Below, piece after piece: positions 54,694 to 64,000 of a stretch of DNA of 64,000 nt (within the stretch, counting starts at the first letter, position 1; each line of letters opens with the position of its first letter). The stretch is taken from assembly GCA_028534125.1 (NCBI GenBank), contig CM052816.1, positions 29,452,001-29,516,000 on the forward strand. Reading direction: 5' to 3'. The DNA comes from Lama glama. Lineage: Eukaryota. Made by a program: the position numbers and the translations under genes. The notes beneath the pieces are model-generated. The model saw only the letters and a program-made list of their open reading frames with translations. It was not told the DNA's origin and made no database searches.

Positions 54694-55055
54694 CAGGGTT
54701 GGCAAACTTTCCTAAAAGGCCCATACAGTAAATATTTTAGGTTTGCCACTATAAAGTCTTTGTTCTCCTGAACTCTGTTATTGTACTGGGAAAATATCAT
54801 AGAAAGCAAATAATGAATGGGTTAGCTGTGTTTCAATAAAACTTTATTTACAAAACAGGTGGCAAGGCCATAGTTTGTAATGCCTAGTCCCAGTGCAGTG
54901 CTTCTCAAAACTTTAATGTGTACAGATCACAAGAGTAACTGAACAAAATACAGATGATGATTTGACAGATCTGGAGTAGAGTCAACAACCTACATTTCTA
55001 ATAAGCTCCCAGAGAGTACTTACTACTTGGTATTTGACCATACTTTGAGTATAGG
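54694..55055. mobile_element. hAT-Charlie MITEs (MER58A-like followed by MER5-like)
   Basis: cagggttggcaaacttt...tcaataaaactttatttacaaaaacagg, then cagtgcttctcaaaactttaatgtg...catactttgagt. Confidence 0.75.
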
Positions 55056-55361
55056 TTCTAAGATAAAGAAAGCAGAAGTATTTAATAAAAAATGTGTAAT
55101 ATAAGGTAATGCTATAACCATTTGGTCCTTAAGCATCATTTAGGAGAATTTTAATGGACATACATTCACTGACTTTCCAGGAAGAACCAAGTGAATTTAA
55201 GTTTCCTTTGAGATAAATTTTTTAAAAAGGAATTCATAAGGATGGATTAATACTTCACCATTAGCTCATTGAGCTGCTTTCTTTAGAAACCCAAATGAGT
55301 AACATTTATAAACCTCCAACAAAAGCAAACCATTTTCTCTATATACATTTTTATGTACTAC

Positions 55362-55489
55362 CTTATTTCCCTGATAGTTAAATCTCATTCTTGTAACTCT
55401 TGAATTGCCACCAGATCGGAAACAGGTTATTTGTTGAGAATGGCCCCATTCAAACATTCTGACACTTCCATCTTGAGCTCCTGTCAGAT
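55362..55489 (-). CDS. DMXL1: DMXL1 coding exon, 128 nt (Y-LTGAQDGSVRMFEWGHSQQITCFRSGGNSRVTRMRFNYQGNK), WD40
   Basis: aatgcag acceptor and gtagta donor. Contains the WD40 signature LTGAQDGSVRMFEW. Overlaps ORF 55266..55457(-). Confidence 0.96.
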
Positions 55490-55840
55490 CTGCATTATGA
55501 GGGAAAAAACTTCAAATTTATTTCAGGAGTCTTTGACAAATTTATTTTTTAATCCAATGAGAAAATCTTCATGGAAGAAATACCTAAGAAATGAATCATA
55601 GTCAATTTAAGTGAATTTACCTTCATAAGAAATTCCCCTTGAATACTCTTAATCCTAAAAACAGATAATTATATGATCTTTTTTTCATCTGACTGAGAAT
55701 ATATTCTTCCACAAAATAAAAGAAGCAATTAAATCAGACCTCTATAAACTTTATTTCCTATTGAAATTATCTCAATTATGCTCTAATAAGCCTTTAGTAA
55801 ATAAACTTTTATGATAAAGACTTAAATTCTTGGGATTACT

Positions 55841-55965
55841 TAAGTTTGTACAGTGACAGATGGTTAACTATACTTATCATGGTCATCATTTTGTAATGTA
55901 TAAAAATATTGAATCACTACAGCTGAGACTAACATAATATTTTAAGTCAATTGTATTTTTTTTTA
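55841..55965 (+). mobile_element. Short L1 3' fragment
   Basis: L1 3' UTR motifs. Approximate TSD ttgggattact / ttggcgattact. Confidence 0.6.
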
Positions 55966-58231
55966 AAAATTGGCGATTACTAACAGCCAATTCTTATCAA
56001 TCATATTATTAATGTTTAAAAATTTATGCATTCTTCTCTGAAAAAAAGATTTTGGAAGGTCTGGAAAGTCATGCTAAAAAAATCATTTCTAATGGTTACT
56101 ATGATTGACCTGATATCTCTAATATATGTTATCTGTTTGTTTTGAAATGTTTTAATGCTGGGCTGGGATGGAACCTTGGGTAGAATTTCTTGAGACTAGG
56201 GATGTTAATTCTATCCCCTCTCCCATATAATCTTCCTCAGCTTAATCAAAAAAAATTAATTAGATGAATTTTAAAACCACTCAAATTTTTCTATTATTTA
56301 TGATTTTATTTAATTTATTTGAAAAAAATCCCTACTAGAAGCTTACATGTAAAATAATAGGCTCTCTTAAGAGAATATTTAGTTTATAAACTAAAATTTT
56401 AAAAAACAAAGGTTTCTGTAATCAGGCTGTCTGAGCAAATATCCCTCATTAGTATCTGAAAAGAGTTACATCATATAAGTAAAGAGTTAAATGCAATCTT
56501 AAAAATCTTAATATGTTCATTATTTTTTGTAAAGTGGGGCTTTCGTTTTAAGACTTACATTTCTATTTTAATACAAACCAGTAGATTAACTTCTAAAAAA
56601 TTTCTCTGGAGTAGAAATCCAAAAGTATTTGTTTATAATGACTGAGATTTAAAAAAAAAAGAAAGAAAGAAAAAAAATCTACTCCAAAGGAAAAAAGCAA
56701 CTGTTTTGAGCTATCTGTAATTCAGAATAAAATTTTTAAAATTTGTTTCAAAACACTTCTAGTACATAAAAAAAGCCTACTATTGAACTAAATTAGTATC
56801 TGTGGGACTTGTTCATGACATGAAAAAAATACTGTAAAAAAATTTCCGTGATTAATTTAATATGCATTTAATTTTTCAAGCTCTTTATCTTCCAGTTATG
56901 GTAGTTCTCTGATTGCAGAAAGTACTTACCCCAAGACAGAAGTGACCTGATGTTACCCAATAATTTTGAAAATAAGTCCTTAATTGTCTTTGAGGCCAGG
57001 GATCATTTAAACTAGTCACCTGTCATGACACATGATTTGGGGCTGAGAAAAATAAAGTCCCTTCAATATTTCAGGAAACTTCTAAACCCTACTGCATAAA
57101 GTATAGATTTTAAGTAATGCCAAATTTTCTTGCAGTGGGTGTAATAATATTTAAGCTTTGTATATAAAACACCTTTGACTCCTTACTGTATACGCTTCAT
57201 GACTGTTTCTGGTTCTCACTTTACGTTAGACTTGCAGACAGAAAACATATACTTGTAGTGTTGAATAAATTCAGTGTAGTGAAAAGAAACTATAAGGTTC
57301 TCCTGAGCCCTTTAACTGGACATTGGTATACAACTTTGATAATATATGCTTACAGCACCTATGATAATTAGGTAGAAAGGATCATTAGTTTTGTCATTTG
57401 TATTTTATCAGAATATCTCTCATAAAAAATGTGGTACCTATAGGTTATTAAATTGGAGGGACATAAATATCTTTTTAATCCACATGCATTGTTTTCACTA
57501 TTTTTGTTACTGTATTATGTTATTATAAGATAAAGGGCACAAATTAAAAATTGTATTAAAAAAACTTGAAATACTCACATGCCAATATGAATACTGATTC
57601 CAACCCACCAGTTAATTTTAAAGTTGTGTTTATTATTTTGTCTCTGCTTCAACACTTCCAATAAATTCCCCATTAATTAAGCTCTTTGTTAAAGGAAGAA
57701 AAACTTTTGAGATTCCTAGGAAGATTAACTGAAAATAAATATATCCTGCCTTAGAATCTAGGAACTTACTAGAAACCATTTCCTATACTTACTATTAGTG
57801 TATCTGATAAAAGAGAAATTGACAAAATATCAATAAAATAAAATAAAATACAAACTGATTATGATGAGGCTATAAATGACCAAGATATGGTTCTGGTCTA
57901 TTTTAAAAAGAGATAAGAGTGATCCTATTATTAAAGCGATAATTATCAACTATAATTTAACATTGTGTAAAAAGTCTAGAAATGTTCAAAAATAAAATGT
58001 GCCAACTTAGAAACATGCAGTCAAAATGTTATAAATTTACACATTAAGTTAGCCTTCTCTATTAATTCAGGAAAATTACTTTTTCTATTTTTACCCAATT
58101 TTGAAATAATTTTATTTGCTAGAAAACATTCTCCACAAAACATAAATAAAGTAAGTGCTGACTATCTTTCAATTGAAACTAAAAGTTCTCTTTAAATTCC
58201 TTAAAATAATGGCTAATTATTATCAACTTAC

Positions 58232-58292
58232 AGTAAGGAAGAGTTGGATGAGAAGTCATTCTTCTGACATTATTAATGGCTTTTTTAATCAT
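58232..58292 (-). CDS. DMXL1: DMXL1 coding exon, 61 nt (MIKKAINNVRRMTSHPTLPY+T)
   Basis: ttaacag acceptor and gtaagt donor; phase 0 in, phase 1 out. Confidence 0.95.
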
Positions 58293-61200
58293 CTGTTAAC
58301 ACATAAAAATCATTCTTTTATAGTTACAATAAAAAGTAGTATTAAAAATTTAAACTGTGACAGGAAATTCAAGTAACATTTATTTATATGTGATTACATA
58401 ACATAACTAACATAATGGGTGCTAAAAATACTAAACGTAGTAACAAATAAAATTAAATAACTCAGCTCTCTTACATATTAGTGTACATAAATTTTCTGGG
58501 TCACTGACTTGGATCTAAGAACAAATTCACCTCAAGAATTTAGTCTTACCTCCTTTCTTGCCAATTCCTTTCTGATCCCATTAAATTTATTGGAATAATC
58601 CTGAATAGTATAAGGTTAAAAAGACAGGCAGAGCATGTGAAAAAAAAGAGGTAAACAGAAGATTGTATAAATTTTTAATTGATAGTTTGGAACTATTTAT
58701 TTACCCATTTTTAAATCATGCTTAAATCATTTAAGTAGCCTGTCAAGTAAGGGTAAAGAAATATGTGAAATTAAAGGGATAATTTTAATTTATAGACCAT
58801 TTCCTATTTATACACTGTAACTACAGGTATAGGTTATCCTAAGATTGTAGCACCAGTCTCATGTACTTTTTTTGTTGTTATTATTCTTTTGCATTTTAAA
58901 TTGTTTGATTAGCCCAAGGTTGTAGGTAAAGTGGAGATTTCATAGGGAAGGATAGGACTAGGCCAGCAGAACTGCTGAGAGACAGAAACAATTAAATAAA
59001 CATATGGAAGCAGGTATACTCCAAAACAGCAGAAACTGGTCATAACCTGTATTCCTTTTCATTAGTATTCACAATTTAATAACATAATAGGATTAAGAAA
59101 ATATTTGATCAAATTCTCCACACAAAAAAACAAAAATCTGCTGAATGTTACTTTTGTTTAGTAAACTCCATGTTTAAATCTCATGCTCCTTTTAATTAAA
59201 AAAAAAAGCCTAACGATTCCTGTTCTTTCTTTTATCACTTTTTTCTGATTAAAGTATCAAAGGAAAATAATGAGTAAAAAAATAAACAGAGGGTAAATAC
59301 GTTTCTGAAAGCATATGTAGAATATTATAAGCGAAAGAAATCATTAATGATTTTATTAGATCCATATAAAAAGGAATCACTTTATTATGTTGGTGTCTTT
59401 TTCCTGAGGATGGAGTAGGGTAATCTGAATGTTTGTGTTTACAAATCACAATGACCCCAACTAAAAAGATGTCCTTCTAAGATTTATGTATGAAGAAATT
59501 GCAATCCTAAGAGGAATGACAAAAGTGAATTTCCATATTGTAATACTCTGGAGAATAAACAAATATTTTCTGAGCACCTACTAAATATTAAACACCATTG
59601 TAGTTAGAGATCATCAGTGTATAAGGCAGGCATAATGTAATCTCTCAAAAAGCTTACATTGCAGAGGGTATAAAAAAGACAACCAAATAATGAAGAGATA
59701 ATTTCAAAACTGGTAAAAGCTGTAAGGATGATAAAAATGGGATAATAAGATGATAAAATGTGACTAGGGGTAGAGTATGAAGGAGCAGATACTTTTCCTA
59801 GGTAAGCAAGGGAACTCTCTGGGAATTTGAATTGAGGTCTGAATGGTAAACACAGAGCATTTTAACATGCTGATCACCCACCGTAGATCGGGTGTGTTTC
59901 TTGTGGGGCCCAAATTCACACTTCACTGCAGTATGATGCACTAACAATATATGTGCTTACAAATGATTTGTTTGTTTTTCCAGTATAATTGGAATTGTTT
60001 TATAAAACAATTTATTTTCAATTTTCAGCCTCTTTACACTGCTATTTCTTCTTGGAATGTTATTATTCTGCATGGAATAAATTCTGCATAACTGGGATGA
60101 AGGAAAGCATCACCCATATCTGGATGATGAGGCCCCTGAGGAAACTCAACTGTCACCCAGATTTGGATGACAAGGCGATCAATGTGTTAAGCAGAAAACA
60201 AGGCTAAGGCTCTGACATGGCAATAAACTTGATGTACTCAAGTAACAGAAAGAAGACAACTGTGACGAGAGCAAAGAGAATCAGGTGTGAAAAAAGGGAG
60301 ACACTGCAGCAGGAGCTAGCAGTGGTAAATCACACAGGACCTTGGAGGCCATGTTAAAGACTTGTTTTAAAGTTATACTGTGAAATCTGAAAGTTTTAAG
60401 CTGGGGAGTAATAACCTGAATGGTGCCTTAGAAAAGAGAAACTAGCTGATGTGTACAAAACAGAAGGAACAGTGTAGAAGCAGAGAGACCAGAAAGAAAG
60501 TTGCTATAGGAAGTACTGTACTGTATTTTCTGAAAATGGAGTTTGAAAAAGTCATTATTATTATTTTTCATATATTTTGTTATATTCTCTTTAAGTTCTC
60601 CTTTAAAGGATAATAATATCAGTAGGTTTTACAAGTGAATTTTAATGTATCTGTGCACTGGGAAAAAAATTAAATATTAATGACCAACTCTTTTCATTTG
60701 AATAATTACTAGATGGCTTTTCAATTTCTTCAATTTAATACTTAGAATATTCCTACCCGAAATCGCTGAGTGAAGGGGAATGGAGGGCTTTAACATAAGC
60801 ACTACCACAAATTTGAGACAGTGACCTGAGTTAAATTCCTTGACCTTTCTGGATCTGAAGCTTCAACTAAAGAATGGTAAGTAGCAGTAATTATAACAGC
60901 TACAACAGATATCTCAAACAATAATATGGTTATATGAGTGATAAAGGAACTGCATTAAATATAAAATATACCAGGTATTATTAAAGATGACTGAGCCTTT
61001 ATTTAATTAATTACCCCTATTAACTGGTAAAAAAAAATTTTTTTTGTTTTTTTGGCCAAGGAAGGAATTCTACAGGACCTAGGAAACTGGAAAGGAAAAA
61101 AAAAAATAAAAAAAAACAAAAGACCATACAGCTAGAAAGCCACTGAAAGAATTGCTGAGGCTGGGTTTCTTTGATTCTGTGTATCAACTCCTATACCCTA

Positions 61201-61453
61201 CGTGTCAACAAAGGAATCTCAAGATATAAACATGGATCAAATCGTAGGTAATCAGGGCTCAAGAGGATCCTCCATTACTATGGAAAAATTCTGTTTCAGT
61301 TCATCTGCATATTATATTTTGCTTAAACTTAACAAATTTGTATCGTTTTTATTTGTTCAAAAAAAAGAACAGTATATTTGTCTCAGCATTAAAAAGCCAT
61401 ATTCAATATAGGCACAGATGTTAGGTGATAACCATTTAAAAATATTATCTAGA

Positions 61454-61785
61454 CTAGGGGTAGACAAACCTTTTTTGAAAGGACCAGATAATAAATGTTC
61501 TGGACTTAATGGGTATATGGTCTGATACTCAATCCTACCAGTGTAGTGTGAAAGCATTCATAAATAAAATACTAAAAAATGACTGTGGCTATGTACCAAT
61601 AAAATTTTATTTACAGACAGTGAAATTTGAATTTCATATAATTTTCATATGTCACAAAATATTACTGTTCTTTTGATTTTTTTTTCAATGGCTGAAAAAT
61701 ATAAACAGCATTCTTAGCGTGTTGTCCACATAAAAACAGGTGGCAGGCAGGATCTGACCCAGACTAGTGTGCTGAGGCCTGATTT
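61454..61785 (+). mobile_element. MER58B-like hAT MITE
   Basis: ggggtagacaaacctttttt...gtaccaataaaattttatttacagac...aaaacaggtggcaggcaggat. Confidence 0.78.
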
Positions 61786-62034
61786 GGACCAGTAAGTTCC
61801 AAATTATTATTTGATACAGCTCTTTGTATTTTAAATTTTATTTTATTTTATTTAAAATAATTTTGTTATCCTTTTCAAATGAAAACATACTGTTCTTCAT
61901 AATCAAAATTTACAATTTCCAGCAAGTATGATTTACTAAAAAAGTTAGGAATTAAAAAAAAGTTTATATCATCCTTTATCAAGTTAGAGGGAAACAGAGG
62001 ACATTTATACACATATATTTTAATTTTTACATAC

Positions 62035-62176
62035 CACAGATGCTCCTCTGCCAGTCTGTGTGCTACCAAGCCATGGCATGTTTATTGGAGTACCAGGATT
62101 GCTATGTGTATATGGGGTTGTACCTTGCACAGCTGTTAAATCATCACGAGCATGTATAACCAAGAAATCTTCTGAC
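62035..62176 (-). CDS. DMXL1: DMXL1 coding exon, 142 nt (G-SEDFLVIHARDDLTAVQGTTPYTHSNPGTPINMPWLGSTQTGRGASV)
   Basis: tttgtag acceptor and gtatgt donor. Overlaps ORF 62020..62208(-). In frame with its neighbours. Confidence 0.96.
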
Positions 62177-62543
62177 CTACAAAGGAATGCCAACCAGAAT
62201 GAAAGCAACTCATCAGTTGTTTATTTCTTCTCTTATACCTGGAAGCTCTAACACATGACTGTATTTCCCTATAAAATTAATTTTCTTCAGCTCTTCACTC
62301 CTAATTTGTAAACAATTGTTTCATACATGAACCATTTCAGATCCTTTCACTTATTTTCTTCTAAACCTCAACTCCTTTCTTTAAAACTCCTGCCATCCCT
62401 TCTTTACTCTTTAGCATTATCAGCTTCTACTTTGCTTACAATCTAGAAATATTCCTTTAAAAAAATCATTTGAAAATTATAGTTCTGTGGGTATCATCAT
62501 TCATACTGCAATGTCATTGAATAAAAACCAAGTATAACAGTAC

Positions 62544-62665
62544 CCTTTGGTTTCCATTTCTATATCATCATCTACCCAAGTATAGATCTGTGTGGCCAGA
62601 ATTCCAGAAACATCCAGTTCTTGAACATCATGGCTCGAAGCAATTGCTATGCAGTTTCTATTTGC
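62544..62665 (-). CDS. DMXL1: DMXL1 coding exon, 122 nt (ANRNCIAIASSHDVQELDVSGILATQIYTWVDDDIEMETK+GG)
   Basis: ttttcag acceptor and gtactg donor on the minus strand. Translation matches the DMXL1 C-terminal region as I recall it. Its phase-2 end joins the next exon. Confidence 0.95.
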
Positions 62666-63622
62666 CTGAAAAATAAATCATACAGTAATCTTTAAATAAA
62701 AAAGCATAATATGTATATGGGCTACTTTTGAAAATGGAGACTACAATAGTGTCTCCATAAATGATAACTTTTAAGGTACAAAATACATACTAGTCTCACA
62801 AATCAGCATTTTAAATTAATTTTAATAATTAAACTTTGAGTGAAATAATCATCAGCTTGAGCTTAGAGATATGTTTATGTTCTAAGAACTCAAGAGTATC
62901 CAAAAGAAAGCCAGTTATAAGTGAAATGCATGTGCAGCTTTATTTCTTCTTCCAGCATTGTCTCTCTAGTGTACTAAAATGGTACAATCTCCCTAAAGTT
63001 TGCACAGCTCAGACATGTAGAAGGAGATGTTGAGGAAGACAGGAGCCCTGGAAGGCACAGAAAAGTGAGGGAGATAAGGAACACCAAACTAAAGAAATAA
63101 TTTTTTAGCAAAAATGTGAAAAAATTAAATGACACACTCTTATACAGTCAATAGCAATCTTTGTATATATGGGCCACTGTTCATTACTAGTTACTTATAC
63201 ACACCCAAATAAAAGAAAAAACCCAGTTTGTTTTATTGCAGAGAATGTTTAAAATAATATTTTCTTCAGGGGAAGGAAGGTACTTATTGGGTGTAGATAA
63301 TAATTTTGTATTTCACATGTATATATCATATTTATATCTATTACATCATGAGAACTGCCTGGCTAAGGGCTAATTTCAGCCTCGACTGTCTTGTATCTAT
63401 AGTATTCAAGAGTGTCTATAAGGAAAATGAGACAAAGAACACAGGGAAAGATGAGGCCAGAATGACAAAGGAACTATCTAGGAGAAATGAAAGAAAAGAT
63501 AGACACAGCAAAGGAAGATAAAGAACCAACTGGTGAAATGATTATTAAATGGGTAATGCCATAGGATATGTATATAAATTTTATTTTTAAATTATTTTAA
63601 GAATAGGAATAAGTGAAAAAAA

Positions 63623-63660
63623 TGTGTGTGTGTACACACACACACACACACACATACATA
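63623..63660 (+). repeat. (TG)n-TA-(CA)n microsatellite
   Basis: Visible directly in the sequence. Confidence 0.9.
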
Positions 63661-64000
63661 TCCTTTAAGTTAATGGAAATAAAAGGAAACAAGTAACTAG
63701 AAGTCACCGTACATTTTACACTAAGGCAACAAGGGGAAAATGAGTATGACAAATTTTAACCTTGGACCACTGTACCTAAGGCTATCTCTTCTGCGAGTAG
63801 CTTAGAGATTCTTCTAAGAAGAATGCTGATTAGAAAGCTAAAGAATACTAGCTGGGCAGGTATTGTAGCTGAAAGTCAAAGAGGGAGAATGTCTGTGAGT
63901 CATATATAAGCTTAATTTTGACCTATATTAAGAATCAGATTCAACATATTCATATAAGGAAAATAGAAAACATTTTCTTTGGATTACTGTTACAATCTGT

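Follow-up and report, generated by a model that had tools for sequence, protein, structure and literature searches.

A conserved 51-nt cassette exon of DMXL1 encodes 17 residues between a candidate LIR motif and the C-terminal WD40 repeats

DMXL1 helps to assemble the acid pump of the cell (V-ATPase). We searched the 64,000-nt window (the whole stretch of Lama glama DNA that was analysed) with fetched DMXL1 proteins using tblastn, and ten coding exons at the 3' end of the gene were located from 62689 to 43563. A 51-nt exon, DYSNKFNGIRKELARKE, falls in a phase-0 intron of 3742 nt between two of them and is bounded by AG and GT, with the flanks ...tattcag and gtaaga (Table 1). Its 17 codons contain no stop, and it keeps the frame, being a multiple of three and open in the phase of the flanking exons. 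Insert-bearing isoforms matched the window exactly at this exon. The initial annotation had proposed, from the sequence, an in-frame DMXL1 cassette encoding a charged insert just ahead of the terminal WD40 repeats. This proposal is supported: its sequence, coordinates, frame and peptide all match the window, and its position in a phase-0 intron between ...GRGASV and MIKK... was confirmed. It had described a non-repeat setting; the exon and its flanking sequence occur only once in the genome (G000, 2.35 Gb), and tandem repeats are absent from positions 55000-64000.

Table 1. Positions in the window of the 51-nt exon, its candidate splicing signals and the flanking exons.
Feature	Position	Strand	Basis
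51-nt frame-preserving DMXL1 cassette exon, 17 residues	58550..58600	-	sequence, tblastn, conservation
Strong donor gtaaga	58544..58549	-	top-ranked among 181 intronic GT sites
Acceptor region: 90-nt AG-free zone, U tract, candidate branch points, UGC/YGCY	58601..58692	-	putative motif functions
ACUAAU, QKI-type core (candidate site)	58477..58482	-	motif definition in the accessible part of PMC12064062
Upstream constitutive exon, ending ...GRGASV, with candidate LIR FLVI	62035..62176	-	tblastn
Downstream constitutive exon, starting MIKK..., start of the confidently modelled WD40 repeats	58232..58292	-	tblastn, AlphaFold2

Predicted isoforms from mammals, birds, lizards, lungfish, gar and bichir have the insert at this junction. 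Identity of the insert to the window peptide was 17/17 in goat and rabbit, 16/17 in duck and python, 15/17 in opossum and 13/17 in echidna, and in the deeper lineages 11/17 in lungfish, 10/17 in gar and 9/17 in bichir. Comparison with the neighbouring exon (insert versus exon, 16/17 versus 35/47 in python and 16/17 versus 43/47 in duck) indicated that in amniotes the insert is conserved, at the peptide level, as well as that exon. The comparison returned an orthologous peptide at one junction in distant vertebrates with the frame conserved. Since the insert extends from mammals through lungfish, gar and bichir, these sequences place the origin of the exon in the bony-vertebrate ancestor, some 430 million years ago. 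We regard it as almost certainly real and conserved.

A search for relatives with residues 2775-2835 of a duck isoform gave 620 proteins among 898 candidates. The best 120 of these were ordered by similarity to a query that itself has the insert, and their counts are therefore not frequencies: 51 had the 17-residue insert at the junction, 65 had no insert, three had longer inserts sharing the same end (20, 22 and 30 residues) and one had an unrelated 13-mer. Both flanking exons were covered by 208 of 300 fetched proteins, with the insert absent from 127, present in 79 and replaced by unrelated inserts in two. The 79 proteins exhibited 21 sequence variants, and G8, I9, R10, L13, K16 and E17 were invariant in all of the 20 that were counted, a count that excluded one 30-residue gene model. 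The insert was not found in teleost, amphibian or shark proteins, as sampled by cluster representatives and some cluster members, and it may thus be dispensable in teleosts and amphibians. A phmmer search of 50% representatives with the gar stretch gave three matches, none with the insert, and is uninformative for sharks or teleosts; a search for insert-bearing relatives of 216-690 residues gave two proteins, both without it. Bichirs have an insert lengthened to 22 residues by SFIVQ, and in one lizard an added NIQ brings it to 20 (P0181, P0176). In the window, the end of the intron (58601-58615, minus strand) reads ...TIQ in frame, and the longer forms therefore look like the choice of an upstream acceptor. 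A change of F6 to I is common to mustelids, otter and seal, and is not seen in the dog family (P0071, P0170, P0173, P0251, P0253).

At one other locus in the genome, which we take to be DMXL2, the next exon is matched at 74%. An intron of 655 nt interrupts this locus at the corresponding position and phase, and no similar peptide was found in this intron: the best score was 15, compared to a mean of 11 and a maximum of 30 for 300 shuffles and 88 for the insert against itself. A homologous exon in the paralogue was accordingly rejected, the similarity being only at chance level, and the cassette is specific to DMXL1. The matching exon of the paralogue (L004:5540-5672) has no FLVI LIR, so that membrane recruitment may differ between the two proteins. 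The C-terminal part of DMXL1 itself holds three frame-preserving cassettes, of 38, 21 and 17 residues (P0084, P0085). The 38-residue insert is present in duck DMXL1 isoforms, and the 21- and 17-residue cassettes flank the LIR-bearing segment. The exons of the 38- and 21-residue cassettes lie outside the window or have no match there.

Forms with and without the insert coexisted in 11 of 11 species sets of predicted isoforms, in agreement with the cassette reading, and the exon is very probably alternatively spliced. None of the 20 junction-spanning proteins among 87 Logan proteins had the insert. Because contigs drop rare forms, this suggests that skipping is the common form of DMXL1, not that inclusion is absent. 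Six RNA runs hold 13-51% of the words of the window and give no evidence on splicing. All insert-bearing isoforms are automatic gene models, and RefSeq X-isoforms rest on RNA-seq junctions; the fetched protein set included no human, mouse or cattle isoform with the insert. The novelty claimed for the exon did not survive, as predicted RefSeq/UniRef isoforms of many vertebrates already hold the insert, which is the outcome that the initial annotation had itself named as removing it. Already in automatic annotation, the exon is an ordinary one as exons go, and thousands of conserved short cassettes exist; it is apparently uncharacterised. Regulation by tissue is probable.

Full-text searches gave no paper on the 51-nt exon, and VastDB, subscription papers and some supplements may hold it; a full-text search for a DMXL1 microexon likewise gave no match. 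The accessible parts of the papers on mRAVE, the V-ATPase assembly complex, do not mention such a DMXL1 splice form, and that of PMC11237898 does not mention the 51-nt exon. A DMXL1 splicing event under ZMYND11 is described in PMC12974184, where the accessible part does not identify the exon, and a DMXL1 NMD isoform in the available part of PMC13622813. DMXL1 was absent from the supplementary files searched for PMC5630039 (23 of 27), PMC4317164 (four of five), PMC12064062 (one of one) and PMC13759335 (12 of 21). Only a 63-nt DMXL1 exon was present in those searched for PMC7935315 (12 of 19) and PMC9303857 (12 of 18, with three of four DMXL1 rows).

We scored the splice sites with rough self-made frequency matrices, not with MaxEntScan. 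The donor ranked first among the GT sites of the intron, in line with the near-consensus donor noted initially, and the acceptor was middling, outside the top 12 of 194 intronic AG sites. The acceptor-donor pair was sixth by summed score and second among the stop-free in-frame pairs. These splice signals are suggestive only: the scores do not single out the exon, whereas conservation of the peptide at the junction does. The pair with the top score in the intron, a 72-nt open frame at 61086-61015 (minus strand) with a poly-T acceptor, had no match to the fetched proteins by tblastn, was rejected and is likely a chance occurrence. The AG-free zone of the 51-nt exon is the longest among ten DMXL1 acceptors (18-57 nt in the others), and candidate branch points lie at -71, -55, -41, -19 and -14. 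UGC motifs are located at -35 and -30 (58635-58633 and 58630-58628, minus strand), and both are also YGCY (MBNL-type) sites. Downstream, no GCAUG was found within 250 nt. The ACUAAU that had been reported about 60 nt downstream is present, at a distance of +68. Its nearest UAAY half-site lies 21 nt beyond, and the exon's own donor is the only one of nine DMXL1 donors that is followed by ACUAAY.

This layout fits a regulated exon but does not pick the regulator. The exon would usually be skipped and its inclusion regulated through a distant branch point, the long AG-free zone and the strong donor. The downstream ACUAAU would be the best single candidate enhancer, which makes QKI our best single guess for the regulator. 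According to the accessible part of PMC12064062, QKI sites consist of an ACUAAY core with a UAAY half-site 1-20 nt apart, and the spacing here is one base past that range. The rival is a conserved exon whose inclusion SRRM3/4 would switch on, in neurons or endocrine cells, by way of the upstream UGC. A strong donor, a long AG-free zone and the position of UGC, between the AG and candidate branch points, would suit this rival, as would the deep conservation, which is typical of neural short exons. A layout of this kind is described for SRRM3/4 control in the available part of bioRxiv 10.1101/2024.09.17.613571, and the exon is therefore compatible with such control. However, UGC also occurs within 50 nt of five of the nine other DMXL1 acceptors, 51 nt exceeds the 3-27 nt class as defined in the accessible part of PMC7935315, and a 51-nt DMXL1 row was absent from the 12 of its 19 supplementary files that were searched, which, judging from the file order, should include the list of 314 SRRM4-induced exons, although the library used there may lack this event. 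The initial annotation had read an SRRM4-type arrangement; the upstream UGC stands, whereas the common occurrence of UGC at other acceptors and the missing row make the SRRM4 reading doubtful, and we consider SRRM3/4 control unlikely.

In the protein, the upstream exon starts with SEDFLVI, with FLVI at 62166-62155 (minus strand), and the insert lies 40 residues past this motif, just ahead of the C-terminal WD40 repeats. The accessible part of PMC12246789 presents FLVI (human 2695-2698) as a candidate LIR of DMXL1, and states that FLVI mutation or WD40_3 deletion blocks lysosomal recruitment after TRPML1 activation and that direct ATG8 binding was not detected; how mRAVE reaches particular membranes is described there as unclear. 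A PDB sequence search gave no DMXL1 chain, a Foldseek search with the insert-free model found nothing beyond generic WD40 proteins, and the ESM Atlas gave no usable match for the insert region. Two AlphaFold2 models (33 sequences each) had pLDDT below 50 over the region and showed the insert as coil. The insert's C-terminal half exhibited the best helix propensity, at 0.26, whereas 18 windows from the loop ahead of it gave 0.38-1.44. The hydrophobic moment was not above that of shuffles, being reached by 8.4% and 39% of 5000 on two scales, and the net charge of the insert is only +2.

We propose that the exon is an old optional one whose 17 conserved residues come after the LIR motif and before the last WD40 repeats, with inclusion likely in some tissues only. 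The insert would likely form a short, basic helix for binding: IRKELARKE would follow an Asn-Gly cap, and F/I/L6, I9 and L13 would lie on one face (shared also by Y2). Such a helix would tune how lysosomal membranes recruit the DMXL1-WDR7-ROGDI complex. Its partner, a protein or an acidic lipid, may lie near the membrane, since the AlphaFold3 models in the available part of PMC12246789 put WD40_3 and the LIR there. V1 binding has been assigned to a helical bundle (PMC12527914, accessible part) that is far from the insert in sequence, so that an effect on recruitment seems more likely than one on V1 binding. The chain as a whole, from tissue-limited inclusion to recruitment, is in our judgement evenly poised between right and wrong.

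The insert may instead act by its length or local structure, loosening the propeller or moving the LIR loop without itself binding a partner. It splits ...GASV|MIKK..., which is probably an outer strand entering the WD40 propeller: the insertion point is nine residues ahead of the first clearly modelled strand, and in the insert-free AlphaFold2 model the loop comes after a strand-helix unit, and one MIKK residue is in a bridge, all at low confidence. A microexon that acts by insertion and not by its side chains is described in the available part of PMC13759335. However, six invariant residues across bony vertebrates exceed the needs of a spacer, and the insert varies in length (17, 20 and 22 residues) while its C-terminal core does not, which makes this role improbable. 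A second LIR (F-N-G-I) beside FLVI, raising avidity for lipidated ATG8, would profit from the short distance to the published motif, and the core [W/F/Y]xx[L/I/V] is matched, by FNGI or FTGI, in 15 of 21 variants. In the other six the core is absent, gar and bichir having L, and some carnivores I, in place of the aromatic residue, and as a main function the second LIR was rejected on this lack of a conserved core. In addition, Lys-Asn before the motif and Asn-Gly inside it are unlike LIR contexts, which are acidic, and the invariant residues come after the motif; we hold this role to be very improbable. Annotation noise, or a chance in-frame stretch with no function, would accommodate the rank of the splice-site pair, the predicted status of all supporting isoforms and the Logan result, but is scarcely credible and is refuted by the conservation of frame, position and peptide across species ranging from mammals to gar, bichir and lungfish, against chance-level similarity in the paralogue intron.

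Returning to the binding helix, the LIR-WD40_3 region in which the exon sits is the one found necessary in the accessible part of PMC12246789. A conserved 17-residue switch would offer a small, direct test of splicing tuning V-ATPase assembly by tissue. On a broader scheme, which we think decidedly unlikely and offer as speculation, a DMXL1-only splice switch of bony-vertebrate age would provide a second docking element by the LIR, creating a tissue-specific mRAVE with its own membrane partner and, together with the 63-nt retinal exon, tuning the whole membrane-recruitment arm.

Comparison with known systems begins with the predicted isoforms of duck (XP_035165196.1, X1), rabbit (XP_051700073.1, X5), goat (A0A8C2P311), lungfish (XP_043915100.1), gar (XP_069043344.1, X6) and bichir (XP_051785928.1, X2). 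They have the same exon, junction and peptide with no sequence-level difference, and are automatic models to which neither a function nor a tissue has been assigned. The SRRM3/4-dependent neural microexons of 3-27 nt share the long AG-free zone, strong donor and upstream UGC, whereas the present exon is longer than that class and has its UGC at -35 and -30. Under the definition of a micro-exon as up to 51 nt in the accessible parts of PMC4317164 and PMC12064062, it qualifies at the limit. The Snap23 microexon regulated by QKI, RBFOX2 and MBNL is likewise frame-preserving and conserved, belongs to a trafficking gene and has an ACUAA core downstream; in contrast to exons of that type, the 51-nt exon has one QKI core, lacks a nearby downstream GCAUG and has a strong rather than a weak donor. 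The last comparison is with the 63-nt DMXL1 exon (HsaEX0020033 / MmuEX0014914), likewise a frame-preserving cassette, which borders the LIR-bearing segment at its opposite end. It is a distinct exon of 21 residues that is less conserved than the 51-nt exon, and it is retina-enriched according to the available part of the PMC9303857 supplement, with PSI of 72 versus 13 in human and 90 versus 6 in mouse.
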